Source: a phage. From it: 64,000 nucleotides of DNA. Under the pieces are notes generated by a model. It saw only the letters and a list, made by a program, of their open reading frames with translations. It was not told the origin of the DNA and made no database searches. The position numbers were made by a program, and so were the translations under genes. This document shows, piece by piece, positions 2,118 through 64,000 of the stretch (position 1 is its first letter; every line of letters begins with the position of its first letter). The stretch lies in sequence record NC_042307.1, one strand, 5' to 3'.

Positions 2118-2150
2118 AGCCAGGTTGCTAGTCGACCTGGCTTTTATTTT
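2118..2150 (+). terminator. rho-independent terminator downstream of nrdD
   Basis: Stem agccaggt/acctggct with 9-nt loop followed by tttatttt. Confidence 0.6.
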
Positions 2151-2200: not shown

Positions 2201-2209
2201 GAAAAGACT

Positions 2210-4459: not shown

Positions 4460-4461
4460 AT

Positions 4462-4890: not shown

Positions 4891-4899
4891 GGAGGCACA

Positions 4900-5292: not shown

Positions 5293-5431
5293 TTTTTATT
5301 AGCTGAACTTTGTAATCCGGGCTATTAGTGCTCGGATTATTACATAATCTTTTCAGTCGATTGATAGTCAAAATAAATTGTCGTTGACAATTTGGATGGA
5401 TTATGTAATAATATATGTATTGGAGGTGAGG

Positions 5432-5884
5432 ATGTCATTCACACAGCAAGAACTTTTAGATAACTTCCGGTATGAAGAGGGTAAGTTATTTAGAACTACA
5501 GGAAGAAATGCAGGGAAAGAATGTTGTGTTTCTACGGGTAACGGATATTATCGTATATCTCTAGGGAATAGGACTATGCTTCGGCATAGAGCAATATTTT
5601 TAATGCATCATGGATACTTACCTGATTTAGTAGACCATGTGAATACTATAAAAGGTGATGATCGTATTGAAAATCTTAGAGAGCAGACAGTATCCGGTAA
5701 TCTAAGAAATATCAAATATAAGAAAGGAATGCATGTTTACCCTTCTGGTAGTAAGAACTGGCAAGTGGTATTTACTATTAACCGTAAACGTATAGTTAAA
5801 GGAACATATGACAACTATGAGGTTGCATGTTCTATGGCCAAGATGTTTAGAGGTCAATTATACGGTAGGGAATCAATCCAGTAA
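5432..5884 (+). CDS. HNH homing endonuclease
   Basis: N-terminus MSFTQQELLDNFRYEEGKLF parallels MITQERLKELFDYSPETGEF of other HNH copies; HNH core HRAIFLMHHGYLP...DHVN; start set at ATG 5432 preceded by GGAGGTGAGG. Confidence 0.7.
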   Translation: MSFTQQELLDNFRYEEGKLFRTTGRNAGKECCVSTGNGYYRISLGNRTMLRHRAIFLMHHGYLPDLVDHVNTIKGDDRIENLREQTVSGNLRNIKYKKGMHVYPSGSKNWQVVFTINRKRIVKGTYDNYEVACSMAKMFRGQLYGRESIQ

Positions 5885-5892
5885 AATTTCAT

Positions 5893-5935
5893 TTGCAAGG
5901 GAGTATTATTTTATAGTATAATATTCCCATAAATG
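5893..5935 (+). promoter_or_regulatory. T5 early-type promoter upstream of long leader
   Basis: ttgcaa (5893-5898), 18-bp spacer, tataat (5917-5922), then cataaatgagagac downstream box. Confidence 0.5.
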
Positions 5936-6417
5936 AGAGACATTAGTAAAAATTGATTTTGCTAATTTTTCTTGTTTACAATCCGCGATACGGAACAGTT
6001 AGGCTGCCCCATTAAGGGTTGTTTTAACTATTACTAGTGTTTATATTGCATTAGTTAATCTTCAATTAAGTGATCTGTGTACCCTGAATTCGGAAAGGTA
6101 AATCCAAACCGTGCATATTTAGCTCGTTATATAGGCAGAGTTTTATATGGGGGTGCGAACGAAAAGAGCAGCGAATGGCGGCACGTACAGTAGTCACCTA
6201 CCAATAGGATAGTGAGGACAAATAGAATCGGCTTAGCGGCCAATGACCTAGGTTCTATTCTGTATATGAGCGAAGAGAGCACAGCACTGAGATATGATAA
6301 CTTATTCATATTGTTTGATGATAATTGATGTTTACGTAAATAGTAGTAATAGTTGTTCTATTCTTTCTGAATAGTCCTAAAGAAAAGATTTCGATTAACC
6401 AACACAGGAGTATTGTT

Positions 6418-9207: not shown

Positions 9208-9442
9208 AAAATGGGAAACAAGGAAGTTTCCAGTAAAAGAACGTAAAGTTCCTGTTTATGATACTTCGGAGAAGCTATGTAGGGTGGTTCCTGCTAGACT
9301 AGCATCCATAAATGGCATAGGCGCATGGTTGCTAAAGCAGAGAAAGCAAAGCATATCATTACGTATATCTTTTGAGTTAGACCAAATCTATAGAGAATTG
9401 GGAGAATTGATTAAAGAAAATGATAACACAGGAAGAGGTTAG
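9191..9442 (+). CDS. hypothetical protein
   Basis: ORF track 9182..9442; likely start at ATG 9191 overlapping upstream gene end. Confidence 0.4.
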   Translation: MTVKNKKWETRKFPVKERKVPVYDTSEKLCRVVPARLASINGIGAWLLKQRKQSISLRISFELDQIYRELGELIKENDNTGRG

Positions 9443-9878
9443 AGAGGCTTTTGAGTATGATCCTGAAACAGGCCATCTTAAATGGAAGAAAACAAGACAG
9501 AAGAGTCTAGTAGGTAAGTTTGCCGGTGGTAAACATAAAGGGTATATAAGAATAGGGTTTAAGCGTAGGCACTGGGGAGAACATCAGCTGGTATTCTTAT
9601 ATCATAAGGGGTACATACCAGAAGAGATAGACCACAAAAACAGGATTAAAGATTGCAACTTTATAGAGAATTTAGAAGACTCCAATAGATCTAAGCAAAT
9701 GCACAATATTAATGTACGTAAAGACAATAAGTTGGGTGAGCCTAATATCTACATGAGGGGCGATAAATATTGTGTGCTAATGCAGAAAGGATCTATTCGT
9801 AAGTACCAGCAGTGCAATACTATAGAAGAGGCTAAAAAAGTTAGGGCTAATTTTAAGTCCGAACTCTATCCAAATTAA
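9420..9878 (+). CDS. HNH homing endonuclease
   Basis: MITQEEVREAFEYDPETGHLKWKK N-terminus and HNH core LVFLYHKGYIPEEIDHKN. Confidence 0.75.
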   Translation: MITQEEVREAFEYDPETGHLKWKKTRQKSLVGKFAGGKHKGYIRIGFKRRHWGEHQLVFLYHKGYIPEEIDHKNRIKDCNFIENLEDSNRSKQMHNINVRKDNKLGEPNIYMRGDKYCVLMQKGSIRKYQQCNTIEEAKKVRANFKSELYPN

Positions 9879-9879
9879 A

Positions 9880-9925
9880 AATTTATTTGCTTTCAGGAAA
9901 AATTTTCTGTATAATAGATTCATAA
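9880..9925 (+). promoter_or_regulatory. strong T5 early promoter (PN25-like)
   Basis: aaatttatttgctttcaggaaaaattttctgtataatagattcataaatttgagagaggag; -35 ttgctt 9887-9892, 17-bp spacer, -10 tataat 9910-9915; matches my recollection of the T5 PN25 promoter. Confidence 0.8.
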
Positions 9926-9946
9926 ATTTGAGAGAGGAGTTTAAAT

Positions 9947-10651
9947 ATGGCTGGTTCTCGCAGAAAGAAACATATCCATGAAATCCCGGATGAAGTCTTT
10001 AAAAAAGTTATAGAGCATCTGGAAAACGGTGGTACTAAGAAAGCAGCATGCGAAATGCTCGGCGTATCATCCAACCCAACTATGGAAAGGATGATAGAAG
10101 AGTGGCAAGACCGTCAGATCCAAGTTGCCGAGATGAAGAAAAAGAAACGTGGTACACTCATTGAAGGTATTGAGTTGGCCAACGTTATTGAACAGTATCT
10201 ATCTGGTGATTCTTTTGAAGAGATTGCCGATCGTAATTACCGCTCCGTAGCAATGGTTAAATCTGTTCTGGAACGCTATGGTGCTCTGCTTCGTTTGAAT
10301 GATATTGTAGATCCATTGAATCCACCAATTATTCCTGATGATGCTGTGGCAGAAGAATTTGAGGTTGGAGAACTAGTTTGGGTTCCTGGATACCAGTGTA
10401 TCGGTGAAATCAAAAAAGCAATGGATAATCCTGTTGGTTGTTACCGTGTCTGGCTTCTATCAGAAGGCAAACAACAGAACGTTCATTATATGAATTACGA
10501 GCTGGCTTCTGTTAAACATCTGGAAAAGTTAGGGGTTGACGTAAAATCCCTGGGGTACAAGTGGACTCGTGAAGAAGTTATTACGTTGATTAACGAAGCT
10601 GTTAAGGCTGCCTTGAAACTTGATAAAGAAAAAGGAAAACGCCGTGAGTAG
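9947..10651 (+). CDS. putative HTH DNA-binding protein
   Basis: 234 aa directly downstream of PN25-like promoter; helix-turn-helix-like segment TKKAACEMLGVSSNPTMERM. Confidence 0.6.
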   Translation: MAGSRRKKHIHEIPDEVFKKVIEHLENGGTKKAACEMLGVSSNPTMERMIEEWQDRQIQVAEMKKKKRGTLIEGIELANVIEQYLSGDSFEEIADRNYRSVAMVKSVLERYGALLRLNDIVDPLNPPIIPDDAVAEEFEVGELVWVPGYQCIGEIKKAMDNPVGCYRVWLLSEGKQQNVHYMNYELASVKHLEKLGVDVKSLGYKWTREEVITLINEAVKAALKLDKEKGKRRE

Positions 10652-16458: not shown

Positions 16459-16988
16459 TAACACAGGAACGACTAAAAGAACTGTTTGACTACTCCCCAG
16501 AGACTGGGGAGTTTATTAGAAAAGTATCTAGAGGCAACCAGAAAGCCGGGAGTATAGTAACTAGAAAGGATTCAAACGGTTATATAATTATCGGTATAGA
16601 TGGTAGGGATTATAAAGCCCATCGTATGGCCTTCCTATTTATGGAAAACACGTTACCTGAAAAAGTAGACCATATAAACCGTATACGAAGTGATAATCGA
16701 TGGTGTAATCTAAGAGACGCCACAGCCCAGGAAAATAGTAGAAATAAAACCGCATGTAGTAAGTCTGGATATTTGGGAGTTGCTTGGGATATAGAAAAAC
16801 AAAGATGGAGAGTTCAAGTAAGAGACTCTAATAGCACTCTTAAAAATGGTGGCAGATTTAAGTATGAAGAGCTAGAGCTAGCTGTAAATTCAGCAAATAT
16901 ATTAAGGACTAAGTTACATGGAGAACGTGCTGTTATAGAATTTTTTGATACATCTAATTATCCTTCACTGGAGGAGTTAAATTCATGA
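16455..16988 (+). CDS. HNH homing endonuclease
   Basis: MITQERLKELFDYSPETGEF..., HNH core YKAHRMAFLFMENTLPEKVDHINR; ATGA overlap with flanking genes. Confidence 0.8.
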   Translation: MITQERLKELFDYSPETGEFIRKVSRGNQKAGSIVTRKDSNGYIIIGIDGRDYKAHRMAFLFMENTLPEKVDHINRIRSDNRWCNLRDATAQENSRNKTACSKSGYLGVAWDIEKQRWRVQVRDSNSTLKNGGRFKYEELELAVNSANILRTKLHGERAVIEFFDTSNYPSLEELNS

Positions 16989-22339: not shown

Positions 22340-22873
22340 ATGATAACTCAACAAAGATTAAAAGAATTACTAATATATGATCCAGATTCTGGCCACTTTA
22401 TTAACAAGGTGTCCAGGGGCAGAGGAGGTAAAATTGGGGCTATTGCTGGAAGTCCTGATAAAGATGGATATATAATCATAGGTATAGATAGGAAATCTTA
22501 TAAAGCCCATCGCTTAGCCTTCTTGTACATGGAAGGCTATATGCCTACTGAAGTAGACCACGATAATAGAATACCTTATGATAATAAATGGAGTAACTTA
22601 AAAGATTCTTCTCATTCGGAAAATATGAAAAACCGTAACCCTTATAGTAAATCTGGTTATAAAGGAGTTACGTGGAATAAGGTTAAGAAGAAATGGCAAG
22701 TACAAGTGTGTAGGTCAGATGGTTCTACAGTTTATGGTGGGTTATTCCCTTATGAAGAATTAGAGTTAGCTATAAATAAAGCTAATGAACTTAGAGTACA
22801 GCATCTAGGTATGGATTCCAGGCAAGAACTATTTAAAGGATATATTTGCCGACGTGAGGACTTAGATAAGTAA
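22340..22873 (+). CDS. HNH homing endonuclease
   Basis: MITQQRLKELLIYDPDSGHF..., YKAHRLAFLYMEGYMPTEVDHDNR. Confidence 0.8.
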   Translation: MITQQRLKELLIYDPDSGHFINKVSRGRGGKIGAIAGSPDKDGYIIIGIDRKSYKAHRLAFLYMEGYMPTEVDHDNRIPYDNKWSNLKDSSHSENMKNRNPYSKSGYKGVTWNKVKKKWQVQVCRSDGSTVYGGLFPYEELELAINKANELRVQHLGMDSRQELFKGYICRREDLDK

Positions 22874-29962: not shown

Positions 29963-30292
29963 CTATTGGGTAATAGCGTTCAGGTTCATTGCGCCTGTGT
30001 TAGCGATTGCCAGATTGGTTGCACCCTGACCCTGTACAACAGTTAGGCCCAGATTGTTCAGTCCGCTCTGAATGGATTCGATATCGCTTACCAGTGAAGT
30101 AGTCAGCATGTTTGCAGCAGTACCAGCAACGGAAACCGCGCCATCCACACCACCAACGCCAACACCACGACCACCCACACCATTACCTAACCAGGAATCA
30201 ATCAGCGCACCACTAAAAGCAGCGATACCAGGCATAGCACCGTCACCACCGAGACCGCCCATGTTGGTCGGTAAAAGAGTCCTGTCAGACAT
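29963..30292 (-). CDS. Gly-rich hypothetical protein ending at an in-frame TAG (amber) codon
   Basis: ATG at 30290-30292 with AGGAG RBS 8 nt upstream; MSDRTLLPTNMGGLGGDGAMPG...NLNAITQ then TAG at 29963-29965. Confidence 0.55.
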   Translation of the reverse strand: MSDRTLLPTNMGGLGGDGAMPGIAAFSGALIDSWLGNGVGGRGVGVGGVDGAVSVAGTAANMLTTSLVSDIESIQSGLNNLGLTVVQGQGATNLAIANTGAMNLNAITQ

Positions 30293-30412
30293 AGTAAACA
30301 CTCCTGAGAGTTGATTGTTAAACACATGTAACACGCACATTACGAGTTAAGCATAGTGCATAACAAAAAGTTTACCTGGCATCTGATGTAAAGTTTTGTA
30401 AAGTTAAAAGTG

Positions 30413-30444
30413 ATAAAAATACGCAGCCGAAGCCGCGTATTTTA
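30413..30444 (-). terminator. bidirectional-looking rho-independent terminator downstream of tail fiber gene
   Basis: Near-perfect 12-bp stem aaaauacgcagc/gccgcguauuuu with cgaa tetraloop, flanked by A-run and T-run. Confidence 0.6.
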
Positions 30445-30447
30445 GGA

Positions 30448-32715
30448 TTAAGGAAGGTCTTGATTTGGAGCGGGGTCTTCAGGTAGAGTGGTTGGTTTAT
30501 CTTCTAACAAAGACTCTAACTTACTGACACGGGCGCTTAGCACCTGGATAGCAGCAAGCGCATCCAGTAACAGCACGTTAGTATCAAGCGAAAGAATTGT
30601 ATTTCCCTCCTTGTCCTCGCTTGAGTGTGTGTATTCAGGGTCTATGGTTGCCGCTTGCTGTGCAATGATTCCACGACGTACCCGACGCTTTATATCATCT
30701 TTGAAGATAAACGTCACGAGCTCTAACTGATTGATGTTGTTTAACGCACTCTTACCGTCCCATGGCTCAACCTGTTCTTTATAATCAATGTCGCTTGTAG
30801 GATCCAGCGTTACTCGCCCAATACGAGTACTATCAATCCATACATCGACTCCCGGATTTTCCCACGAGAAAGAATAGCTATTTGCTTGGAAATTACCACC
30901 AATACCTCTACGGCAAATGACACCTGCCGAGGGTAAGAGAGTTGTTAAGCGAGTAGCATCGTAGGTATCTAAAACAGATCGTGCAGTTCCATCGTAAAAA
31001 TCTACACGAGCGGCGTACTGTGTCACCTGCCCCGCCCCATAACTCAACTCCATGTTACCGGACGCCTCTCCTGGCGCACCTGTGTTACGACTAATAATCA
31101 GGCTTCTAATATTAGACATTTCGCCAAAGTCGCTAAAAAGATACTCCCAGCTTTCACCGGACACTCGAGTAGGCTTAATGCAGGCATATGTGACGCTTCC
31201 TACTGTGTGGTTTACGTAAAAATCAGCAGTCGCCGTTCCGATACCATAGCCTTCTACAATTGATCGCCACGACCAACCCAAAATTTGACCTGTTGAGCCA
31301 GCAGGATAATAATGTTTAGTAGCAATCATGGCGGTCGCAGTGTCACCACCTTTGGACAGCGCCCCGATGTTGTTGCGAGCACCCTCTGCGTCCCAAGCTC
31401 CAGTGCCGCCCTGTCCTACTCCTAAAGGTTTAAATACATTACTAGTATCGTCATAGACACCCCAAGACCCTGTATCCATTACAACTAAGTTGTAGCGGTT
31501 TGTCGGGTCATAAATGCGGGAACTATCAGCGCTCTGTTTAAGACGATCCACACTTAGGTTTATACGAGCCTGTACCTTGTCACTTAAGTCTGCAAGGTTC
31601 TGATCCTTTAACAAAGATATGCTCAAAGTTTGTTCAGCTTTGTTTGCTGCGGTCTCAGCTCGAGTTGCGGAACTGGATGCTGCTACGGCTTGTTCTCCTG
31701 CGGTTGTAGCGCTTCCAGCCGCGGCTGTAGCCTGTTCTGTAGCCGTTACTGCCTTTTGTCCAGCTAAGGTGGCAGCGTCTTCCGCAGCTTGTTTTAACGG
31801 GGTGATTTCAGCAATTGCGTTTGCCTTAGCTGTGTCAATTGCTCCTACTGCGTCCGTCTTAGCTGCTCCAATCTCTGTCGCCGCACCTTCTTTAATGGTC
31901 TGAGTGTCCGCTTTAAGCTGTTCAACATCGGACTTAAGACCCTGTATTGTGGTCATAGCTTGCGTAGCTATGTTCGCGCTATCTGATGCACCTTGCTGAG
32001 CTAGCTTAGCAGCGTCTTCACTAGCTTTTGAGTTAATTTCGCTAGTCTTTGTATTAGTTTCTGAGTTTTTTGCTGCTAATGCTGATGTGGAGGCTTGTGC
32101 AGCGAATGCTTCTGCTTCATCCCTGAATCCTTTGGAGTCAGAAGCAGAGGCAGCGGAATCAGCAGCATTAGTCTCGCTAGTTTTTGCTGCTGCTGCATAT
32201 GCTGCTGCATTAGTCTCGCTAGTTTTTGCGTTAGTCTCACTAGTTTTTGCATTAGTCTCACTAGTTTTTGCTGCAGCTGATGATTCTAGAGCGTTAGTTT
32301 CACTAGTTTTTGCTGCAGCTGATGATTCTGCAGCTTTAGTAGCGGACGCAGCAGATTGAGAAGCAGAAATAGCAGAGGCATCGGCACTATCTTTAGATAA
32401 ACCAGCTTGTCTCTCCGCTTCAGTAGCAGAAGTAGCAGATTGAGTTGCAGAAGCTTCTGAAGAGTTAGCATAATTTGCAGATAGGTTCTCAGAGTCCTTA
32501 GCATTTATTTCAGATTCTTTTGCTGCAATTTCAGAATCTTTTGCAGCCGCAGCAGACTTAGCTGCTGCCTCAATAGAAGATACTAACTCACTTGCAGTAA
32601 TAGAGCTAATAGAATTACCTAGAGTTACTGTATATCTAGGAAACTTACTAGCAGTAGCTTTAGTATCGTCAATATTTAATATCTGTTGTACAATAATTTT
32701 AGTAGTTACTGACAT
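30448..32715 (-). CDS. L-shaped tail fibre protein with C-terminal intramolecular chaperone (peptidase S74-like) domain
   Basis: 755 aa; Ala/Ser/Thr-rich N-terminal repeats (AKTSETNA); C-terminal SDIDYKEQVEP...RGIIAQQAATIDPEYT...KLESLLEDK matches the auto-cleaving chaperone domain of endosialidases and T5 pb1. Confidence 0.8.
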   Translation of the reverse strand: MSVTTKIIVQQILNIDDTKATASKFPRYTVTLGNSISSITASELVSSIEAAAKSAAAAKDSEIAAKESEINAKDSENLSANYANSSEASATQSATSATEAERQAGLSKDSADASAISASQSAASATKAAESSAAAKTSETNALESSAAAKTSETNAKTSETNAKTSETNAAAYAAAAKTSETNAADSAASASDSKGFRDEAEAFAAQASTSALAAKNSETNTKTSEINSKASEDAAKLAQQGASDSANIATQAMTTIQGLKSDVEQLKADTQTIKEGAATEIGAAKTDAVGAIDTAKANAIAEITPLKQAAEDAATLAGQKAVTATEQATAAAGSATTAGEQAVAASSSATRAETAANKAEQTLSISLLKDQNLADLSDKVQARINLSVDRLKQSADSSRIYDPTNRYNLVVMDTGSWGVYDDTSNVFKPLGVGQGGTGAWDAEGARNNIGALSKGGDTATAMIATKHYYPAGSTGQILGWSWRSIVEGYGIGTATADFYVNHTVGSVTYACIKPTRVSGESWEYLFSDFGEMSNIRSLIISRNTGAPGEASGNMELSYGAGQVTQYAARVDFYDGTARSVLDTYDATRLTTLLPSAGVICRRGIGGNFQANSYSFSWENPGVDVWIDSTRIGRVTLDPTSDIDYKEQVEPWDGKSALNNINQLELVTFIFKDDIKRRVRRGIIAQQAATIDPEYTHSSEDKEGNTILSLDTNVLLLDALAAIQVLSARVSKLESLLEDKPTTLPEDPAPNQDLP
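32160..32330. repeat. imperfect tandem repeats of a ~24-nt unit (gcattagtctcgctagtttttgc) inside the tail fibre gene
   Basis: At least five copies visible between 32160 and 32330; encode AKTSETNA-type repeats on the minus strand. Confidence 0.7.
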
Positions 32716-54326: not shown

Positions 54327-56239
54327 TATGTTAACCTCTGAATATTAAGTCTTAGTTTGTGGTATTGAACCCACGGAGTATATGAAACAGGCAGACCGCT
54401 CATTGGCAATGCCCTAGAAGTTACCCAGAATTCTAGGATATTGGAGGCGTTCTTTCTGATATAGTATTGGAATTTGTTTCGAGGAGCACCAGCAGCACCT
54501 CCAGCATACGAGATAGTATTAGTAGTTAGAATAGGTACAAAAGTATTTGTATGTAATACTACAATTTGGTGAGAAACACCATCACCAGCGTCATAGTCAT
54601 ACTTAGTCAAACGTCTGGCAGCCCCCACATATGGACCACTACCTGCACCGCTACCAGCATTGTTACCAATACGCTGCATGTTTACGTCACCATCAGTATC
54701 ACATAGAGAGTTACCCATCCATTCAATACTTAGGAGAATCGTGGAAGGTTCTGGACTACCACCTAAACCAACATCAACTGTGTTTATTAATCTGGTTTCA
54801 CCATATGCCATAGGATACAGCCTACCATTATCTCCAAGAATAATATTGTTGGCTTTATTCTGCGTAAATAAATGTAGAGGTCTTACATTGGGACTCCAGA
54901 TATCCACACCGTTAATAGCTATCTTATTCTGTGGGGAGTTAATCTCGATATTACTATTTTGTGGAAGTCTGTACAATCCGATATTCCATGGTGTTGAGTT
55001 ACCCACTGTACTACCTGTGTTACTTCCAGTAAATCCTTTCAAACCGCCCCAGGCATTAGCACCAAAGAATCTGAAAGCACCACCATCATCCATCTCTGTA
55101 GAGGACCAAGCAAACACGTTACTAGAGAAGTAAGTATTACTAATGCTAGGAGTACCGGTACTCACAGCTGCTAACATTTCGTAGTTGGTATTTCTTAGAT
55201 CAACTCCTTTAATTATGAAGGAATCTTTTGCAATCTTAATGTCATTACCAGTAAACAGGTTTTCAGCTGAGTAACCCCAGTAGTTATCAAACGTAACGTT
55301 TAACCATAGGTACTCCATACGAACTGGGGTGAATGGGTAGTAAACCTCACTGAATCCAGACATACGCGCATTAGCCACATGACGTTCAGCACCAGCAGTT
55401 AGATAAGCGGAACTAGAGTTAGCCATTGGAATCTGATAGGGGAAATCCAGGTTACGAACCTTAGTATAAGCTGTATTACCATAGGCATTAGGATCACCCA
55501 TACCAGTAGCACATCTAGCACCACCTGCTCTAACATACACAGCATCGTAAACACTGCTAGAAGGTCCAAGTGGATGCATGTAATCAGGATTTACCAGGTT
55601 CTGACTGTCTTCATAGTTCATGATAGGACGGCTTTGAGCACGTGGTATCCAGTTAGTATACATATACCAGTCCTGTGGATCACGCCATTGGTACATAATC
55701 CAACCACCCGCTAAATCATAATAGGCATCAGCAGCGTAGTCTTCACCACCTTCATGGTCAAATATAGTATGCCCACCAGTACCATAGTTACCAATCTGAT
55801 CCCAGACAGCACCACCCTGTTTCCAGTACCCCCATTCAAGGTTCAAGTCAAACTGAATAGATCCGGTATATTGACCCCAGATACTAATATTCTCATAAAG
55901 GTTACGCCATCTATACGTACTGTTCCTCTGAATACCTGTCATCTGGTGGTAATATTCTGTACCATCAGCATTATCTCGTACCACTAGGACTGGAAGAATC
56001 ACATTTGCCCTATTTGCTAGAAGATAGCTGAGGTCGGATGGTAAGGCTCCGGTAAAGTATCCATTACCTGCGTTCCCTAAACCCACCTGAAAACGGCGTT
56101 TAACAAACATGTGAGGCATGTCTGAATGGAAGATGGAGTTTGTGTTGGGACTGTAATGAACGTTGATGTCTCCTCCACTAGCCCTATTTAAAGATAGGAC
56201 TGTTTTTCCATCTGTATATTTTCCTGCGAAGAAGCTCAT
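54326..56239 (-). CDS. putative receptor-binding tail protein (T5 pb5-like by size and position)
   Basis: 637 aa, Gly/Asn/Tyr-rich, last late gene before the early-promoter cassette; synteny only. Confidence 0.45.
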
Positions 56240-56257
56240 AAAATCTCAAAATTTCAC

Positions 56258-56290
56258 TTGTCAACAAGTCTTTATTTTTATATAATATAA
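56258..56290 (+). promoter_or_regulatory. sigma70 promoter (TTGTCA-17-TATAAT) driving plus-strand cassette
   Basis: ttgtca 56258-56263, 17-bp spacer, tataat 56281-56286. Confidence 0.6.
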
Positions 56291-56361
56291 GTATAAATTA
56301 AAAAGGCATCCAAGTAAACAAATTTTTTTATTTTCTGGATGGGTCACTGGTAGCAAACACT

Positions 56362-56688
56362 ATGCAAGAAGATGATAAGCCCTTTCAGGAACCTCTACCA
56401 CTAGAAATGAATCCTAGGGCTAAAGCAGTTCATGATGCAGTTAACGAAATCATTCAAGACGTCATAGAAGATACAATGGAAGATGTGATGGGTACATCCT
56501 TCATACTAGAAGAATCCGGCTTTGATGAAGTAATGGATATTATTGGGACAGTCGTTATGGTTCGTGCAATATGTAGAATTTTTCAAATACCAGGCTTACA
56601 GGAGAAGCAGCGTGCTAACGCAAGAAAGATTAAAAGAAGTGCTAAGGTACGACCCGAATACCGGTATATTTGTAAATTTACAAAGTAG
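56362..56688 (+). CDS. hypothetical acidic protein
   Basis: 108-aa ORF with no obvious RBS; C-terminal part overlaps HNH start in another frame. Confidence 0.35.
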   Translation: MQEDDKPFQEPLPLEMNPRAKAVHDAVNEIIQDVIEDTMEDVMGTSFILEESGFDEVMDIIGTVVMVRAICRIFQIPGLQEKQRANARKIKRSAKVRPEYRYICKFTK

Positions 56689-57146
56689 AGGAAACAAAAA
56701 AGCAGGTAGTATAGCAGGTACATCGAGATAAAGATGGCTATATAGTAATTCGTATTGACAGACTACCTTATAGAGCACATAGACTGGCCTTCTTATACAT
56801 GGAAGGATATATGCCCGTAGAAGTGGACCATGATAATAGAGTTAGAGATGATAATAGGTGGGATAATCTATTTGATGCATCTAGGCAGGAAAATATGCGT
56901 AATAGACCTTCTTGGGGTATATCTGGTTACCTAGGAGTATCCTGGAATAAATTAAAACAAAAATGGCAAGTTAGAGTACAAGATAGTAAAGGTAATCAAA
57001 TATCTGGAGGATTCTTTCCCTACCAAGATCTAAAGTTAGCGGTGGAGAAGGCTAATACGATGCGCGTACAGTTTCATGGACCACGTGCAGTTCAGGAGTT
57101 ATTTAAGGGATACAAAGTTTCTAGTGTGGAGGAGTTAAATAAATGA
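56612..57146 (+). pseudogene. HNH homing endonuclease gene interrupted by a +1 frame change near 56715-56730
   Basis: GTG 56612 (GGAGAAG RBS) encodes VLTQERLKEVLRYDPNTGIF...AGSIAGTSR-stop (56729-56731); HNH core continues in next frame from 56727 (RDKDGYIVIRIDRLPYRAHRLAFLYMEGYMPVEVDHDNR...) to 57146. Confidence 0.7.
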
Positions 57147-57262
57147 GTAAAAATAAAAGAGGGGAAGTATATGAAAGTTGGATAAATTCTTTCGGATTCG
57201 GGACTGTGTTATTCTTTATCTTTGTACTCTTTTGGTTAGCAGCTATGGCGGGGTGGTTATAA
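57143..57262 (+). CDS. small membrane protein (39 aa)
   Basis: MSKNKRGEVYESWINSFGFGTVLFFIFVLFWLAAMAGWL; ATG overlaps HNH stop; one predicted TM helix; not in ORF track (below 60 aa). Confidence 0.4.
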   Translation: MSKNKRGEVYESWINSFGFGTVLFFIFVLFWLAAMAGWL

Positions 57263-57366
57263 TGGAAGTAGTAATTATTGCTTTACTAGTTGTGGTAATT
57301 ATAGGGCAGTGCATCTTAGATAACCACTTAGCTCGTATCGAACGTAAGCTGCGGGGAGACAAGTAA
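57262..57366 (+). CDS. small membrane protein (34 aa)
   Basis: MEVVIIALLVVVIIGQCILDNHLARIERKLRGDK; internal ATG of track ORF 57178..57366; overlaps upstream stop. Confidence 0.4.
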   Translation: MEVVIIALLVVVIIGQCILDNHLARIERKLRGDK

Positions 57367-57611
57367 TGTTTAGTTTTGTAGCTATCTTCATTATCGGGGT
57401 ACTTGCGGGAATCTTCGGAACACTCGGGGCTATTAACAAACATCGTGAATATATTGCGGGGGTATCGCGAGAGCTTTCGGAAAGAGAGCGGAGGTTTGCG
57501 GAGAAACGTGCGGAGTTTGAACGAGAAGGGTCTGAGGGATCTCGGGCGTCGCGGAGGAGATTTCGTATGTCAGAATCAGGAGACAAGCCGGTAGACCGGT
57601 GTTCCTCCTAA
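57366..57611 (+). CDS. small membrane-anchored protein (81 aa)
   Basis: N-terminal TM helix MFSFVAIFIIGVLAGIFGTLGAI followed by charged Arg/Glu-rich tail; TAATG overlap with upstream ORF. Confidence 0.5.
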   Translation: MFSFVAIFIIGVLAGIFGTLGAINKHREYIAGVSRELSERERRFAEKRAEFEREGSEGSRASRRRFRMSESGDKPVDRCSS

Positions 57612-57722
57612 GTTAGCGCTAATTACCAATTCTCGAAATCTCATAAGATTACACATGCGGATGGGCCCAGTGGTTCCCCAGATGAGAATGAGTCTCATTA
57701 CCGCCCCCTTACTTAGCAAGCT

Positions 57723-57770
57723 AATAGTCACACCATGTTATCATTACACAGTGTGACTATTTTATTTTTA
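57723..57770 (+). terminator. rho-independent terminator between convergent plus-strand cassette and minus-strand dmp-like gene
   Basis: 11-bp inverted repeat aatagtcacac/gtgtgactatt with 17-nt loop, followed by ttttatttttaa. Confidence 0.55.
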
Positions 57771-57774
57771 ATTA

Positions 57775-58509
57775 TTATGCAACTTTTAGTTTCTCAATAT
57801 ATTGTTGCGGGCTGCAACTATATTCTGCGCGTTCTTCCTCGGTCATACCTTCCCAACATAATTGCAGGCGGTCGGCTAGGAACTGATAATCATTATCATC
57901 CTCAAGAGATTCATCAATAAAGGTTTCACCTATCAATGTAACCCCAATCGATAGAATATCGTTTATAGCTTGCGCGTCCAGCGTTTTAAACCCATATGAT
58001 GCCGCCGCCGCCAATACTCCTTTATGATCGTCGATCATCGTGAAATCAGCGTTCGGATATAGTTGTTTAAATAACTCAAAGTAATGGCTTTTATAAATAG
58101 CGTCCTTACTGTGGTATATTTCGCTAACCTTATCAGCCTCAAAATATTTGTGTAGTGTATCGCGGGAAAATACACGGATATTACTATCACCACGACCGCG
58201 CAACCCTTGTTTACGCAAATAATAATAGTCCGACTTGCTCATTAGTCGAGCGGTGCAAATAATGTTTAAAGTATTTGCGTCATTCATGCACTGGCGCATA
58301 TATTCAACTAATGGTAATAATGAATCCTGCATTATTAAATGATGTTTACACGCTTCATTTTTATACTTATTTAAATCTAAATTCCCGTTATCATCAAAGC
58401 AAGGCGCTACACGATGGAAAGAATTTATAATCGTTCCGTCTAAATCCCAAATCATAACGCGGGAAATATGCGGGAAAGCGCGGGTAATATTCATATTGAC
58501 TTTATTCAT
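57775..58509 (-). CDS. dmp: HAD-family 5'-deoxyribonucleotidase (T5 Dmp-like)
   Basis: 244 aa; HAD motif I VMIWDLDGTIINSF; size and location next to A1-like gene match T5 pre-early dmp by recollection. Confidence 0.6.
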   Translation of the reverse strand: MNKVNMNITRAFPHISRVMIWDLDGTIINSFHRVAPCFDDNGNLDLNKYKNEACKHHLIMQDSLLPLVEYMRQCMNDANTLNIICTARLMSKSDYYYLRKQGLRGRGDSNIRVFSRDTLHKYFEADKVSEIYHSKDAIYKSHYFELFKQLYPNADFTMIDDHKGVLAAAASYGFKTLDAQAINDILSIGVTLIGETFIDESLEDDNDYQFLADRLQLCWEGMTEEERAEYSCSPQQYIEKLKVA

Positions 58510-58589
58510 TTTGTTACGTTCTCCATTTAAGGGATTAGATTAATTCAGCATTACCCGCTATTTATAAGCGGGTAATAATAAATTAACTA

Positions 58590-58982
58590 TTAAAGACCAT
58601 AAGCCAACGCATCAGCGATAAAACTAACATCTTCACCCGATACACTGGAACGAATCCCCGCACAAGTATATACTTTTGCGCTGATCAATTGATCATCAAG
58701 ACAAGCGGGGCAAGGCGCGACAACTGCAAAGGCTAGGCCGGATTTTACGGCGTCGATGATAATCGTTTCTTGTTTCACCGTGTCAACATAAACGCCTGCG
58801 GCCTTAATGTAACTACTTGCGCGGCCTTGCGTATAGGCAAAGGTAGTAACCTGCAAAGCGTCATTAAAGTCTAGTAGTTCATCAATAACGTGCCCTGCCT
58901 CAACGTGATACCGCTCACCATTAGAATAAACCAGAACAATTGAGGACTGAGCGCGATCGAATGGAATATTTTGCTTTTTCAT
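58590..58982 (-). CDS. hypothetical pre-early-module protein
   Basis: 130-aa ORF with GC-richer codon usage. Confidence 0.5.
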   Translation of the reverse strand: MKKQNIPFDRAQSSIVLVYSNGERYHVEAGHVIDELLDFNDALQVTTFAYTQGRASSYIKAAGVYVDTVKQETIIIDAVKSGLAFAVVAPCPACLDDQLISAKVYTCAGIRSSVSGEDVSFIADALAYGL

Positions 58983-59003
58983 ATTTATATAACTCCAATT
59001 AAT

Positions 59004-59513
59004 TTAATAAGGGATATTAAATTCTTTACACTTTGATTTAACCCATTCTAAAAGAATAGATAAATCATAATTGCCTTTTGAAACATATTTATTTGTTATA
59101 GGGTTTTTAATTTTTGCCCTGTAATATTCTCCCGCTATGGGATCAACTTTATCAAGATAAATATATTTCGGTAGTTTATTACGCCTTTTATAATCACTCT
59201 TATTTGTCATATTAACAGCATGAGTAACTAGGCGTAAATTATTTATATCGTTGTTAACGGGGTAAGAAATTATTTTATGATCTATATCTAAATCAGGGTT
59301 AATTTCTTTATTAAATAAAACCCAAATTAAACGATGAGCTTTATATAATTCACCATTAATCATTACATCATAATAGCCTGTCTGATTTAATGTTCCCGCT
59401 ACACTTCCAGCTTTCACACCGGGCTTACTTATTTTCCATCGTAAAAATGATGGGCTAGATTCATCATAATAAACATTCTCGTTAACTTCATTAAAATCTA
59501 TTTCTTTTGCCAT
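59004..59513 (-). CDS. HNH homing endonuclease
   Basis: YKAHRLIWVLF...DIDHKI...INNLRLVTHAVN HNH motif; C-terminus homologous to decayed copy at 63500..63960. Confidence 0.7.
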   Translation of the reverse strand: MAKEIDFNEVNENVYYDESSPSFLRWKISKPGVKAGSVAGTLNQTGYYDVMINGELYKAHRLIWVLFNKEINPDLDIDHKIISYPVNNDINNLRLVTHAVNMTNKSDYKRRNKLPKYIYLDKVDPIAGEYYRAKIKNPITNKYVSKGNYDLSILLEWVKSKCKEFNIPY

Positions 59514-59583
59514 TTATAATCCTCCAATTAATATTGTCTCACTAATTGGAGGATTTAGGCAAATAAGATTTTAATTTATTGGC

Positions 59584-61308
59584 TTACTGTACAAAAAATT
59601 TACCGTTTTTAAAGTCGATCAAAGTACGTTGCCCGTTTGCATAGGTAATTAAATGCGTTTGCGTCCAGCTTGACGCGCCCACGTTGTAGCCCATATCAAG
59701 CGACCCCGCCACGCCAGCGGTATAAACGCCGCCGTAAATGCTAGCCGTATGAGTATGACCAGTGTTAAGGCGTCCCAACTTTTTAAACTGCTTAGGATTG
59801 CCCCGACTGCCGTTAATGCCATTGTGACCGTGTACGCCGCATTCAATGCCAGCGATTTTAAATGATTGGTCTGTCGTCAGGAAAATAGCGTTAAATTCGC
59901 AACCTGCGACATTACGCAAGGCGTAATCTAGAACGTTAAAGGTATCATCCTTTTCAGCAATAGCGGCGTAAATCGCAGCGTTTAGACGGTGATACAATTC
60001 CGCGTTTGCGGGATCGTCTTTAATGTTTGCGTTACGATCATCTAGCCAGCGTGAAAGAGCTAAATCATGGTTAGATTCCACAATGATTGTTTGAGAGAAA
60101 TCACGCTCCATAGACTCTAAAACGCGTCCAGTATCGATAAGATCATCTAGAACCTTGTCACGTCCGGCGGCGTACTGTTTAGCAAGGAATACACCACTTG
60201 CGCGGTTATGATGATTGCGCGATGTAAAATCATGCACATCATGAATAAACTGATATTTCGGTTTAAGAATATCAAGCAAGCTGTTTTCACTAGCCCATGA
60301 TGCAACGGCGCAATCATCATCTAATTTTTCGGCGTGAATATCGCCATATTGCAAGCCTAGAACATGATCGGATGTTTCAAAACATCCGGTAGGCATAGCG
60401 CAAACATTCAAATCGTAGAACATGCCGCTTTCGTCCATTGTTTCAAGCTGGCGGCAATAAAATTCTCCGTCGTCGTCAAATTCTACTAGCAAAGCGCCGA
60501 AATTATGTAAAGCCTCGGCTTTTTGACCTGCTTTCTGCTGAATGTAGTTTTTAAGCGTAGCCGTTCCGGTTGAATACATACGGCGCACTACTTCACCTTT
60601 TAACGCTGGCACACTTTCAGCGGTGATTTTAGCATGACCGATTGCCAAACCTTCGATATTTAAAGCCGTGGCGGTTTCTGCGAATCCTGAAAGCGGATAA
60701 TCTGCCGTTGGTAAAACGTTAATTTCAGCCATGAAAGCGAAACGGCGGTTATTTAAAAACACGTTTTTGCTGCAAATATATTTGTCAAATGCAGAATCAT
60801 ATTTGATTCCGTCGGCGCCCTCGCCATTTTGAAAACCGTTTTTATTATAAATATATTTTGAAACGAGCAAATCAGCGCCGATAAACTGGGCATATTGTTC
60901 AAGCGCGGCCAAAAAGTTTTTATGCGGGAACGTATTATTCTGAATCGACGTAATAATGAAGCGGTTGCCCTGCTTTACTTCCCAGCTTTCTACCGTGCTA
61001 GAAATAACTCCAGCGGCTTCAGGGCGTTCGTCGTTTTTGATAGCTTTTACAGCTTTCGCCGTTTTTGGTTTCGCTGGTTTATTTGCTTCCAACCAATCAC
61101 AAATAGCGGTGGAATGTTTTGCAGTATCGTAAACCATTTTTGAGATGTCGTCGCATACTTCCAGCTTAGTAGCGCGCAGACGTTTACCGTAGAAATTGAA
61201 ATCAGCGGCAAGGTTGAGGATCTGGGTTTGTTTTTCTGCGGAAATAACCATAGTAATAAACTCCATTAAAGGGATTAAAAAACGTTTGTTATTGGCAAAT
61301 ATTGCCAA
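59584..61308 (-). CDS. A1-like pre-early protein with calcineurin-like metallophosphoesterase motifs
   Basis: 574 aa; motifs GDIHAE, SNHDLA, GVHGHNG, NTGHTH in the order expected for metallophosphatase active site. Confidence 0.6.
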   Translation of the reverse strand: MAIFANNKRFLIPLMEFITMVISAEKQTQILNLAADFNFYGKRLRATKLEVCDDISKMVYDTAKHSTAICDWLEANKPAKPKTAKAVKAIKNDERPEAAGVISSTVESWEVKQGNRFIITSIQNNTFPHKNFLAALEQYAQFIGADLLVSKYIYNKNGFQNGEGADGIKYDSAFDKYICSKNVFLNNRRFAFMAEINVLPTADYPLSGFAETATALNIEGLAIGHAKITAESVPALKGEVVRRMYSTGTATLKNYIQQKAGQKAEALHNFGALLVEFDDDGEFYCRQLETMDESGMFYDLNVCAMPTGCFETSDHVLGLQYGDIHAEKLDDDCAVASWASENSLLDILKPKYQFIHDVHDFTSRNHHNRASGVFLAKQYAAGRDKVLDDLIDTGRVLESMERDFSQTIIVESNHDLALSRWLDDRNANIKDDPANAELYHRLNAAIYAAIAEKDDTFNVLDYALRNVAGCEFNAIFLTTDQSFKIAGIECGVHGHNGINGSRGNPKQFKKLGRLNTGHTHTASIYGGVYTAGVAGSLDMGYNVGASSWTQTHLITYANGQRTLIDFKNGKFFVQ

Positions 61309-61348
61309 ATATAACGCCGTTTATTTACAGCGTTATAATTTGCAACAT

Positions 61349-61546
61349 TTAACTAATTGGCATTAGGCTAGAACTAACACCACAAACAACGGCGGCAATA
61401 AAACAAAGTAAGCCCAAACGCTTAGCTAATTTAGATTTACGTTTAAAATAATATGAATCTAAATCATTTTGAAAATAAGCAAACAATAATGAGGCCGCCA
61501 TAATAAATAAGCCTAGAATTAAAGATTCAGTAGGAAAGAAAATCAT
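61349..61546 (-). CDS. small membrane protein
   Basis: 65 aa with two hydrophobic segments. Confidence 0.4.
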   Translation of the reverse strand: MIFFPTESLILGLFIMAASLLFAYFQNDLDSYYFKRKSKLAKRLGLLCFIAAVVCGVSSSLMPIS

Positions 61547-61635
61547 TTTTAAAACTCCTGATTTAAGGGAAGAAAATAACTATCGCTAAACAGTTATATT
61601 ATTGCCCTCCCACTAGGAAGGGCAAGGTATAACTA

Positions 61636-62052
61636 TTATTCACCTGCGGCTTGTTTTACTTCATCGGCAACGCCTAACAGTTGCGCCACGGCGTCCAGCG
61701 TTTCCAATTTTGCACTTTCCAGTGATGCCAAATCGTCGGCGTCTTTGATAATGCCTGAATCGATGGCATGTTTTGCAATAACACGCACATAATGCGCTTT
61801 ACGGATGGAACTACCGCCGCCAACTTTACGCGGTTTATCACTTTTCTGGTACGCTTTTGCGCTTGTCAGTTTAGAACGTACAGAAACAGGGCTTGCAGCG
61901 CCAACGGCGGCGGCAATTTCTTTCAGGCCGTCACTGTTAGCAAATTCAATTCCGCTTTTAGCGACCATTTCAGAATACATAGAAACAGCCTTTTCGGTGT
62001 TTTCTTCGTTCCAAGAGAATTTTGCGGTTTTTTCGGTTTTAACGTTAGACAT
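61636..62052 (-). CDS. hypothetical pre-early-module protein
   Basis: 138-aa ORF, GC-richer codon usage; upstream AT-rich intergenic region. Confidence 0.55.
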   Translation of the reverse strand: MSNVKTEKTAKFSWNEENTEKAVSMYSEMVAKSGIEFANSDGLKEIAAAVGAASPVSVRSKLTSAKAYQKSDKPRKVGGGSSIRKAHYVRVIAKHAIDSGIIKDADDLASLESAKLETLDAVAQLLGVADEVKQAAGE

Positions 62053-62111
62053 AATTTAATACTCCATTCAATTATTAATTAAGGGATTATGATTAACTAA
62101 ATGTTAATCGC

Positions 62112-62138
62112 TATATATTCTATTAGCTAGAATATATA
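62112..62138. repeat. AT-rich perfect 10-bp inverted repeat (tatatattct / agaatatata, 7-nt spacer)
   Basis: Located in the 285-bp AT-rich intergenic region upstream of the 61636..62052 gene; operator/terminator-like. Confidence 0.5.
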
Positions 62139-62338
62139 ACGGAAACATTTTATTTTTATTTCCAGTTTCAAGCGGTTTATTAATTCCCGAATATATTTAT
62201 ATTCTCACCTTATCCGGCTTGCCAGAGAATTAATAAGGCAACATTGTATTTATACGCTGTTTATTATTCCGTTCACGCTAGGAATATTTCGAGTTATCTT
62301 TATTGCCTAACTAAGCATGATATGTAAGGCGCATTAAT

Positions 62339-62590
62339 TTATGCGATAGCTTGCCATTTATCATCTTTCTGAATGATTTTTACAACGTCGCCAGATTTAA
62401 CACGGACGTTATAAATAGGCTTGCCGTGGTTACTGCGTTCCGTTTCCGCATAGACCGCTTCAATCTTATCAAAGGGATCAAGCGCCGCACCTTTAATACG
62501 TTCGGCTTTTCCGGTTAATTCATCCGTTTTAGTTACAAAAGGAATGAATACAGATTGACCTACTTTCGGCGCGGTAATAACGTTTTGCAT
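62339..62590 (-). CDS. hypothetical protein
   Basis: 83-aa ORF. Confidence 0.5.
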   Translation of the reverse strand: MQNVITAPKVGQSVFIPFVTKTDELTGKAERIKGAALDPFDKIEAVYAETERSNHGKPIYNVRVKSGDVVKIIQKDDKWQAIA

Positions 62591-62754
62591 TTTTAATACT
62601 CCGGTTTATTGGGGATTATTCCACAATAGCGCCTCGATACTTTGAAACGCTATTAGATTATAATCCGCTAGGAGTTAGCCTAAACATTACCGTTATCCAA
62701 ATTGTTAAAGAGCAGTTACTACGGGGAACATCTTAAAACCTATCGGCTAGCGTG

Positions 62755-62973
62755 TCAAGCGTTTTTTAAACTTTTTTCGATTTGATGTGAGTTATATAAA
62801 TCAATCATTATATTACGCCACACCATTTCCAGACCTTGCTGCTTACCTTTCTTGTATTGCTTGAATCTGTATTTTACAGATCTTTGCGCTACTGTCAACA
62901 AATTTTTTGTTCTGCTATCCAGTGGGCTAGCAGGTTTTGCACTAATCACTAAAGCGTTTTTTGATTTGATCAT
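62755..62973 (-). CDS. hypothetical basic protein
   Basis: 72-aa Lys/Arg-rich ORF. Confidence 0.4.
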   Translation of the reverse strand: MIKSKNALVISAKPASPLDSRTKNLLTVAQRSVKYRFKQYKKGKQQGLEMVWRNIMIDLYNSHQIEKSLKNA

Positions 62974-63431
62974 TATCGTCGATTCCTTATAATGTATAAG
63001 TTTACCGCCGATAGGCTTTAAGATGTTCCCTAGTTTTTAAAGAGCATGGCGGTAAACTTCCCCGCCGTTGTAGTCTGGCCTTTCGTTTCCGTCTTGCCGT
63101 CCTACGAGATAAATAATAGGTTATTCCCGAAAATGGCGCAAGCGTATTTTTGTAAAGAAACGTAAAGAAAACCACTACCCGCAAACGTCCAGCGACTGCC
63201 TAAAATTTAATGAAACGGGCGCGAATACCATAAAACCTAGCAGGTTGGCAAGTAATTTTTTCATTTATATCTGCTCTAGGGTACTTGATTTTTCTAGAAT
63301 CCATCAGGTGAGGCGATCGGCATAGTGGCAATGCACTTGCCTAGCTTTTCCTTTGAGGCGCTTAGAATGCGTTCTAGACGCCTTAAATTGGACTTAACAA
63401 ATATTTAACAAAAGCAAAAATGAAATAAATA

Positions 63432-63464
63432 CGAAAAACCCCTTGACTTATAAAAATCAAGGGG
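63432..63464 (-). terminator. rho-independent terminator downstream of decayed HNH gene
   Basis: ccccttga-N10-tcaagggg hairpin followed on minus strand by ttttt. Confidence 0.6.
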
Positions 63465-63499
63465 CATTGCGTTAATTTATTAAATAAAATATTTGACTT

Positions 63500-63960
63500 T
63501 TAAATATTATACTGAATGCCATGCTCTGCACATTTTTTGATCACCCAATCTAGTAACGTAGGTAAATCATAACCAGACTTACTAATGCGCCGCTTACTAT
63601 TAGGAATCCTAATTTGAGCCAGCAAATAATCACGTCCGTTACTATCACGCTTGCCATTACTACTACGATAAATAAAACGAGGTAAATCATTATCACGCTT
63701 ACTATTAACACGATTATTATTATTCTGCATATGATCAACTAAACGTAAGTTTTTAATGTTATTATTTAGCCGGTTATTATCTATATGATCAATTAATAAG
63801 GCGCTATCTATTTCACCATTGAAATATTACCCATATGATTCGAATTCCACTGTAAACAGCGGTAACCATAACCCTAAGGGCATAATAACCAACTGGTAAT
63901 TAATACATTCCCGGCCAATTTTTAACGCGGCCTTTTTAATTTTCCTCCGCGGGTTATTTT
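63500..63960 (-). pseudogene. decayed HNH homing endonuclease paralog (multiple frameshifts/stop)
   Basis: Track ORF 63500..63730 is only the C-terminus (SGYDLPTLLDWVIKKCAEHGIQYNI, cf. NYDLSILLEWVKSKCKEFNIPY of 59004..59513); HNH core (IDHIDNNRLNNNIKNLRLVDH) continues upstream without Met; GYYALRVMVTAVYSGIRIIWVIF lies in another frame ending in a stop. Confidence 0.6.
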
Positions 63961-64000
63961 TCCCACTCTTAAAAAAAATGTATTGGCGGAATGCACTCCC

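Follow-up and report, generated by a model that had tools for sequence, protein, structure and literature searches.

Dinucleotide and codon usage, not G+C content, distinguish the terminal repeat of a T5-like phage from the rest of its DNA

The DNA of bacteriophage T5 is delivered to the cell in two steps. The first-step DNA enters alone, and the other 92% of the genome follows later. Host RNA polymerase transcribes the first-step genes, the promoters of which are very strong, and Dmp, A1 and A2 are made before the rest of the genome arrives; the phage tRNA genes are not yet in the cell while these pre-early genes are being translated. The subject of this report is a stretch of 64,000 nucleotides (nt) of phage DNA from sequence record NC_042307.1 (hereafter the window). 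Its final part, positions 57,664–64,000, is, as judged by alignment with annotated relatives, where the right terminal repeat of a T5-like phage (Demerecviridae, Markadamsvirinae) begins; ~6.3 kb of one copy lies in the window, and the copy expected at the left end is the first-step DNA. The locus itself, a T5-type terminal repeat with pre-early genes, is already known. In the full text of papers on T5 and BF23, of T5 preprints from 2020 and 2026, and of phage codon-usage studies (subscription papers lay outside this search), nothing was found on repeat and unique DNA differing in composition, and the compositional compartment described below is provisionally regarded as unreported.

In T5 (NC_005859) the terminal repeat occupies positions 1–10,219 and 111,532–121,750. 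The gene order dmp, 002, A1, 005, A2, 007, hdi is common to T5 and the window, the encoded proteins are 68–94% identical where measured (Dmp 94%, A1 92%, A2 91%, hdi 68%), and the end sequence, the promoters and the position of a terminator hairpin are alike. In both, the repeat is placed after the genes for the receptor-binding protein and small membrane proteins, and its dinucleotide and codon usage is shifted in like manner. The window differs from T5 in that an HNH homing endonuclease gene stands in place of T5 gene 003 and a truncated HNH-like reading frame is situated near the position of T5 hegG. The window also stops before the plus-strand pre-early operon and the injection stop signal; in the T5 record that signal and the major nick are found at 9,140–10,149, and the equivalent would fall past the window's end. 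An earlier annotation of this DNA, referred to here as the sequence-only reading, had recognized dmp and A1 in this region, and the identities of 94% and 92% to the T5 proteins bear out both assignments.

The border of the repeat was placed by comparison with complete genomes. A megablast search with positions 56,000–64,000 matched 480 phage records, the best match being Salmonella phage Shivani (91% identity). In the alignments, the start of the right repeat in T5 (111,532) and the start of the repeat in Shivani (108,976) both correspond to window positions 57,664–57,666, as do the left genome ends of T5 and Sepoy (position 1 in each case). The T5 and Shivani repeats are those annotated in the records, and the Sepoy repeat is a PhageTerm prediction; the annotation of phage saus132 puts the border ~100 nt further in. 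The start so defined is ~110 nt past the dmp stop codon, and the length of the repeat in relatives is ~8.7–11 kb. Synteny is also T5-like: terminase, receptor-binding protein and small plus-strand genes are followed by dmp, the 002 homologue, A1, the 005 homologue, A2, the 007 homologue and hdi, and the operon order and the orientation of A2 and Dmp match those of T5, Shivani and Sepoy. The annotated ends, the synteny and the conserved promoters thus agree with the suggestion of the sequence-only reading that the window crosses into the terminal-repeat/first-step-transfer (FST) region, and the alignment to complete T5-like genomes that it had proposed as a check gave the border at 57,664–57,666.

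57664..64000, no strand: right terminal repeat, partial, placed from the annotated ends of T5, Shivani and Sepoy and from the compositional change point

From about 57.8 kb onward the genes had been described as visibly higher in both G+C and CpG content. It is apparent that the two halves of that description fared differently. The G+C content of 57,700–64,000 is 0.385, against 0.394 for the rest of the window, which puts it at the 25th percentile of 6.3-kb windows, and so it is not raised. Within the repeat, the G+C content per gene ranges from 0.28 to 0.46, and values of 0.44–0.46 are reached only by A1, A2 and the 130-amino-acid (aa) gene. Higher G+C content was rejected as a marker of the repeat, the maximum of the window being at 30–32 kb. 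That peak (30,001–32,000) has a G+C content of 0.46–0.495, and T5 likewise reaches 0.45–0.49 at 82–86 kb, in the gene for the L-shaped tail fibre; G+C peaks thus exist outside the repeat.

CpG does change, and it does so sharply near 57.7 kb. The observed/expected ratio (o/e) for CpG is 1.50 in 57,700–64,000 and 0.72 in the rest of the window, and that for GpC is 1.64 against 1.10; both are above the values of all other 6.3-kb windows. With symmetrized counts for 57,664–64,000, the ratios are 1.48 (CpG) and 1.62 (GpC), against 0.71 and 1.10 in the rest; AA/TT rises to 1.21 in the repeat, and AG/CT, GA/TC and AC/GT fall to 0.76–0.79. The frequent gcg, cgc and ccg codons that had been pointed out are confirmed by counts, CGC/GCG trinucleotides occurring at 36.5 per kb in the repeat and 10.2 in the rest, and CCG/CGG at 25.1 and 10.8. 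Relative synonymous codon usage (RSCU) in the window shows the same for CGC (2.12 in the repeat, 0.43 in the rest), GCG (0.80, 0.30) and CCG (0.90, 0.54). The sliding-window calculation proposed for G+C and CpG therefore gave a shift for CpG and none for G+C. The repeat is marked by its dinucleotide and codon usage, not by its G+C content.

The position of the change was estimated from composition as well. A two-segment CpG model beats a single segment by 69 nats. A first-order Markov dinucleotide classifier, for which Klebsiella, Proteus and Vibrio phages were the sole training data, sets the change point at 57,758 and gains 267–290 bits past that point; the best-scoring segment anywhere in 1–57,000 reaches only 8–12 bits with the same classifier. 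When CpG alone is used, the change point moves to 57,040–57,334, upstream of the border. The last gene before the repeat (57,366–57,611, plus strand) encodes a T5.162-like membrane protein of 81 aa that is rich in Arg and Glu, and has a CpG o/e of 1.49, a G+C content of 0.50 and a GpC o/e of 0.85. The displacement of the CpG-only change point by ~400–600 nt is due to this gene, which is CpG-rich but GpC-poor.

The T5 record gives the nick consensus as Pu-GCGC, with GCGC as its core. GCGC is found at 5.4–5.7 per kb in the repeat and 0.8–0.9 elsewhere (6–7 times denser), and RGCGC at 3.5 and 0.4 per kb (window 57,664–64,000; T5 1–10,219). Higher-order Markov models predict nearly the same numbers (36 observed against ~38 expected, and 55 against 62). 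The density of GCGC thus follows from the dinucleotide shift, and GCGC was rejected as a selected motif.

A corresponding shift is present in other phages. In T5, the repeat has a CpG o/e of 1.31 and a GpC o/e of 1.52, the remaining DNA 0.76 and 1.11, and in 2-kb windows the ratios flip at both repeat borders. The Karlin dinucleotide distance (delta*) between repeat and unique DNA is 185–232; the three repeats of the window, of T5 and of Shivani are 18–40 from one another. Four further phages have a raised CpG o/e over A2-A1-dmp: Klebsiella phage VAC35 (A1 73% identical to that of the window), Proteus phage PM135 (42%), Vibrio phage Chester (33%) and Aeromonas phage Akh-2 (34%); GpC is also up in the first three of these four. 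The classifier trained on the Klebsiella, Proteus and Vibrio phages puts the borders in T5 at 10,439 and 110,897. Vectors of the RSCU difference (pre-early minus rest) correlate pairwise with r = 0.48–0.84 in six phages. In Akh-2, the pre-early block at 1–4,000 also has a raised G+C content (0.49–0.56 against ~0.39) besides CpG, unlike the phages of Escherichia coli, Salmonella, Klebsiella, Proteus and Vibrio. In PhiJL001, a phage outside the Demerecviridae that carries an A1 homologue, no shift was seen across 22.9 kb around that gene, and the idea that the shift is a general property of A1 genes was rejected on that ground. The compositional split appears to be conserved across the six Demerecviridae tested.

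The shift was then resolved by reading frame. When the expectation is set separately for each codon position, CpG and GpC exceed it at the junctions 1-2, 2-3 and 3-1 (o/e 1.3–1.9), and non-coding DNA is enriched in both as well; for T5, with annotated gene coordinates, the non-coding CpG o/e is 1.08 in the repeat and 0.67 elsewhere. All three frames and non-coding DNA give the same log-ratio pattern over the 16 dinucleotides (r = 0.64–0.89). Because it is independent of frame and present in non-coding DNA, the shift is neither an effect of codon usage alone nor one of amino acid composition, and codon usage was rejected as the sole cause.

The change in synonymous codons is marked, nonetheless. 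RSCU values in the repeat and elsewhere are 0.28–0.50 and 1.44–1.70 for AGA, 2.1–2.3 and 0.43–0.58 for CGC, 1.4–1.6 and 0.46–0.56 for GGC, and 0.8–1.07 and 0.30–0.34 for GCG; ATA, CTA, CCA, ACT and TCT are all less used in the repeat. The correlation of RSCU with that of E. coli (the host reference throughout being one 50-kb piece of E. coli K-12) is 0.56–0.64 for the repeat, 0.30 for early genes and 0.16–0.18 for late genes (~0.6 for the repeat against 0.25 overall outside it). Per 1000 codons, AGA, AGG, ATA and CTA together number 25–28 in the repeat, 45–49 in early and 55.5 in late genes, and 12 in E. coli; the use of AGA, ATA and CTA, which phage tRNAs read, is about halved in the repeat. 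The T5 tRNA genes, which include those for Arg-UCU, Leu-UAG and the annotated Ile-CAU, are all situated at 28–41.5 kb, outside the repeat. Phage BF23 is reported to have no tRNA-Arg (PMC10644984). A2 and A1, the two essential pre-early genes (bioRxiv 10.64898/2026.04.02.716235), are among the most host-like genes of the repeat in codon usage, and the HNH insertions there have the codon usage of genes outside it. Of the synonymous shift, 52–59% is explained by each of two predictors, one host-directed and one derived from non-coding dinucleotides, and 72–76% by the pair. ATA and CCA follow tRNA logic and not the dinucleotide trend.

That codon usage in phages can be stage-specific is a known general idea (Mioduser et al. 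2017, PMC5683454). In that work on temporal codon partitioning, the text of which does not include T5, synonymous codons depend on the stage of infection and this is ascribed in part to the tRNA pool of the stage, which resembles the present case. The split found there is between early and late genes, whereas the one found here is between step-one and step-two DNA, coincides with the terminal repeat, and reaches non-coding DNA and all codon frames. A division between early and late genes was rejected for the present data, as the two classes are nearly identical (RSCU r = 0.96–0.97).

Restriction and defence motifs were also counted. For a panel of 20 such motifs, compiled by us and not taken from a database, the ratio of observed to first-order Markov (Markov-1) expected counts in pre-early DNA is 0.42 in T5, 0.62 in the window, 0.49 in Shivani, and 0.59, 0.42 and 0.63 in the Klebsiella, Proteus and Vibrio phages, respectively. 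The same ratio is 0.76–1.17 in unique DNA, and letter-permuted control motifs give 0.89–0.99. Expectations were analytic; a swap-based dinucleotide shuffle, which mixed too little, led to the same conclusion. CCWGG is absent from the repeat of the window, where ~8 copies would be expected at the density of the rest, and the avoidance of palindromes is slightly stronger in the repeat than outside it. Davison and Brunel reportedly found in 1979 that T5 is insensitive to restriction outside the FST region. EcoRI and EcoRV sites are absent from the T5 FST. Type I and Type II restriction systems can target T5-like phages only via sites in the FST region (PMC10644984), and the depletion of motifs in the repeat agrees with this FST-only sensitivity. 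Studies of restriction-site avoidance have relied on per-phage counts of single sites; the statistic used here is compartment-wide, has permuted controls and covers six phages. The avoidance of sites alone would, in addition, not obviously predict the global dinucleotide shift, in which CpG and GpC are enriched.

We consider it fairly probable that the repeat is a host-facing compartment and that two pressures have shaped it: its genes are translated before phage tRNAs are available, and its DNA is exposed to defences that target DNA. Its distinct dialect would be the footprint of selection on the sole part of the genome that has to work in an untouched host. By the translation route, genes of the repeat would be read by the host tRNA pool alone, and codons that depend on phage tRNAs (AGA, ATA, CTA, CCA and others) would be avoided because all of the phage tRNA genes lie on second-step DNA, usage being moved about one-third of the way toward that of the host. 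By the defence route, restriction and other defences that act on DNA would reach no phage DNA but that of the first step, so that target motifs, and the mixed purine steps from which these are built, would be purged. Expression and exposure of the repeat would both precede the arrival of the phage tRNA genes and of protective functions. The border, the gene content, the size, frame-independence and conservation of the shift, the codon and motif counts and the position of the tRNA genes are observations; it is selective forces as the cause of the shift, and their relative weights, that we infer here. The composite explanation is favoured because some codons move counter to host preference and with the dinucleotide trend, others follow tRNA logic, and the delta* to E. 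coli is not reduced.

A number of observations weigh against this explanation. TTC and TAC fall, TTA rises, and the host-rare codons CGG and CCC rise, all counter to host preference; these five changes agree with the dinucleotide trend, and codons that move away from host preference are not predicted by the tRNA model alone. Nor can the shift in non-coding DNA be put down to tRNA supply. The two predictors of the synonymous shift are collinear (r = 0.51–0.53), so that their contributions are not cleanly separable. The delta* to E. coli is 139–171 for the repeat, no smaller than the 124–134 of the unique region, and host mimicry at the dinucleotide level was rejected for that reason; CpG and GpC in the repeat in fact overshoot the host values of 1.11 and 1.21. 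All comparisons with the host depend on the one 50-kb piece, and the motif panel is of our own compilation. Finally, the window holds a single copy, and the left-end duplicate of the repeat was not observed.

Other explanations must, of course, be weighed against the host-facing compartment. One is a mutation or recombination bias confined to the repeat: since terminal repeats recombine into concatemers and are re-duplicated at packaging, biased gene conversion, or a special regime of repair or replication, could bring the repeat to a neutral dinucleotide equilibrium peculiar to it. As a mutational signature would, the shift appears in every frame and in non-coding DNA; it also tracks the repeat borders within a few hundred bases, and the G+C content of third codon positions is somewhat higher in the repeat (0.355–0.39 against 0.305–0.314). 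Overall G+C content is unchanged, however, and AA/TT is up along with CpG and GpC; C-ending codons are up only after G or C while TTC and TAC are down, which is not the pattern of GC-biased conversion; and the HNH genes inserted in the repeat retain non-repeat codon usage. One phage polymerase, by established T5 biology, copies both repeat and unique DNA. The depletion of defence motifs relative to permuted controls, together with the order of host-likeness (pre-early > early > late), points to selection, and a regional bias of this kind is considered unlikely. The horizontal acquisition of the pre-early module from a donor whose signature was kept would fit its organization as a discrete block with its own promoters, as well as the delta* of 185–232, which is on the scale of unrelated genomes. 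That origin is judged highly improbable: a like shift with like codons is found in phages whose A1 proteins are just 33–42% identical and whose hosts belong to five genera, synonymous sites at such divergence would have equilibrated unless the bias were actively maintained, and non-coding DNA of the repeat is shifted too.

The strand symmetry of the signature, its independence of frame, its presence in non-coding DNA and the overshoot of CpG and GpC beyond host values, in place of convergence on them, would all be expected if it had a function at the level of DNA, whether as a mark for a protein such as A2, as an escape from A1-driven degradation, or in the mechanics of the ejection pause. The evasion of A1 by unmodified T5 DNA is called an open question in the literature. 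No specific motif was found enriched beyond the dinucleotide prediction (GCGC, 36 against ~38 expected), however, and second-step DNA survives without the signature; modest differences in dinucleotides would hardly direct a nuclease that can break the host chromosome down to nucleotides. A DNA-level function is accordingly rated very unlikely, and its more specific form, in which the dialect is a functional self-mark and composition-dependent binding (e.g. by A2) or a nuclease preference spares first-step DNA during the A1 attack, slightly more so. Least credible is an artefact, in which the CpG and GpC ratios would be inflated by Ala/Arg-rich proteins or by a patchwork of genes high in G+C with AT-rich inserts. 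Alanine is somewhat more frequent in the repeat (9.2–9.5% against 7.1–7.8%), gene G+C contents within it span 0.28–0.46, and protein composition does explain the CpG-rich 81-aa gene just outside it (Arg/Glu-rich, GpC o/e 0.85). With correction for composition at each codon position, the o/e nevertheless stays at 1.3–1.9 in all frames, 600-nt windows each mostly give 1.2–1.9, synonymous usage (RSCU) changes strongly, and non-coding DNA is shifted as well; a compositional artefact is largely refuted by these results.

The features identified in the repeat are listed below.

57724..57770, plus strand: hairpin (57,724–57,762) followed by a T-run, directly 3′ of the dmp stop; −17.3 kcal/mol (plus strand) and −26.8 kcal/mol (minus strand)
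57775..58509, minus strand: dmp, deoxynucleoside-5′-monophosphatase, 244 aa; 94% aa identity to T5.001; PHROG 415, E = 4e-58; named dmp in Shivani and saus132
58590..58982, minus strand: T5.002-like pre-early protein, 130 aa; PHROG 4576, E = 5e-81; syntenic with Shivani156 and T5.002
59004..59513, minus strand: HNH homing endonuclease, 169 aa; PF13392, 26.8 bits against a cut-off of 24.8; PHROG 99, E = 8e-37
59584..61251, minus strand: A1, DNA transfer/host-DNA-degradation protein, 555 aa; full-length match to T5 A1 at 92% aa identity; PHROG 1745, E = 3e-243
61349..61546, minus strand: T5.005-like small membrane protein, 65 aa; PHROG 4820, E = 2e-32; syntenic with T5.005
61636..62052, minus strand: A2, DNA-binding protein needed for second-step transfer, 138 aa; 91% aa identity to T5 A2; PHROG 1725, E = 6e-51
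62339..62590, minus strand: T5.007-like protein, 83 aa, DUF7177; PF23801, E = 2e-44; PHROG 3747
62730..62758, minus strand: predicted pre-early sigma-70 promoter, homologue of the T5 P-D/E20 region (TTGACA, 17-nt spacer, TAAGAT); 10/12 consensus; T5 sequence near-identical
62755..62973, minus strand: hdi (T5.008) homologue, host division inhibitor, 72 aa, DUF7416; 68% aa identity to T5.008; PF24188, E = 3e-39
62871..62898, minus strand: predicted pre-early sigma-70 promoter, homologue of T5 P-H22 (TTGACA, 16-nt spacer, TAAAAT); 11/12 consensus; aligns with T5 4799–4873
63438..63465, minus strand: terminator-like hairpin, 12-bp stem then T-run; from a consensus scan only
63509..63823, minus strand: truncated HNH-like reading frame; tblastn with residues 67–169 of the 169-aa HNH protein, 44% identity, E = 4e-16

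The Dmp of the window can be taken with certainty as the orthologue of T5 Dmp. When it was checked for a HAD profile and for the DxDxT nucleophile motif, no Pfam or PDB match was found, and PHROG 415 carries the label 'polynucleotide kinase'; the motif WDLDGT is visible in the protein. The sequence-only reading had made A1 a 574-aa protein with metallophosphoesterase motifs. Its identity as A1 is upheld (92%), whereas the length is most likely 555 aa, with the start ATG at 61,251 as in T5 and Shivani. In sequence-based searches, A1 matched no Pfam family at E ≤ 0.01, metallophosphoesterase profiles included, and no PDB sequence at E ≤ 1. It contains the motif-like strings GDIH, SNHD and GHTH, and is a predicted metallo-phosphatase in the literature. 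The gene hdi is identified as the one overlapped by P-H22 (bioRxiv 10.64898/2026.04.02.716235).

The same reading had counted an HNH gene in the pre-early-like module. The gene is present, with PF13392 above its cut-off, and is a mobile insertion, not a core member. It has a G+C content of 0.284 and a codon-usage log-likelihood ratio of −0.37, resembling non-repeat genes, and the slot between 002 and A1 is variable, being occupied by the HNH gene in the window, by gene 003 in T5 and by a 162-nt open reading frame (ORF) in saus132. The HNH-like frame at 63,509–63,823, within or near which the ATG-delimited ORF runs from 63,500 to 63,730, is without the N-terminal third of the protein and resembles a decayed homing endonuclease inside the repeat. 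Distant paralogues of the 169-aa HNH endonuclease (28–30% identity) are found in the early region at 16,491–16,829 and 22,343–22,651, both on the plus strand. A further homing endonuclease gene, with HNH and AP2 domains, is situated outside the repeat at 56,543–57,146 (plus strand). It is intact in Shivani (200 aa) and broken near 56,723 in the window by a one-base insertion (GGTACATCGAGAT vs GGTACACGAGAT), the two resulting frames being 90% and 99% identical to the Shivani protein; it is either a pseudogene or the product of a sequencing error.

At the border itself, the hairpin at 57,724–57,762 (z = −4.2 on the plus strand and −5.5 on the minus strand) is conserved in position in T5 and Shivani, with a different stem sequence. 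Together with its T-run it looks like an intrinsic terminator for plus-strand read-through at the convergent end of the dmp operon, in line with the convergent terminator noted there previously. The short direct repeats noted at the same place amount to two-copy matches of 9–14 nt, of the kind flagged as chance, and were rejected as marks of the border.

What may be new in these results is that two-step DNA delivery appears to divide one genome into two compositional compartments of equal G+C content, the dinucleotide distance between which is on the scale of unrelated genomes. If this is family-wide, it would provide a way, from sequence only, to find first-step DNA and repeat borders in collapsed assemblies. 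It would also provide a natural test of codon compensation by phage tRNAs, since dependence on phage-tRNA codons is lower in pre-early than in early genes, and lower in early than in late genes, as well as defined sequence features with which to test how first-step DNA survives host defences and A1. The self-mark reading, if true, would answer how unmodified T5 DNA escapes its own nuclease; its weaker corollary, in which the part of a phage genome to be delivered first can be told by its signature from sequence alone, is more likely.

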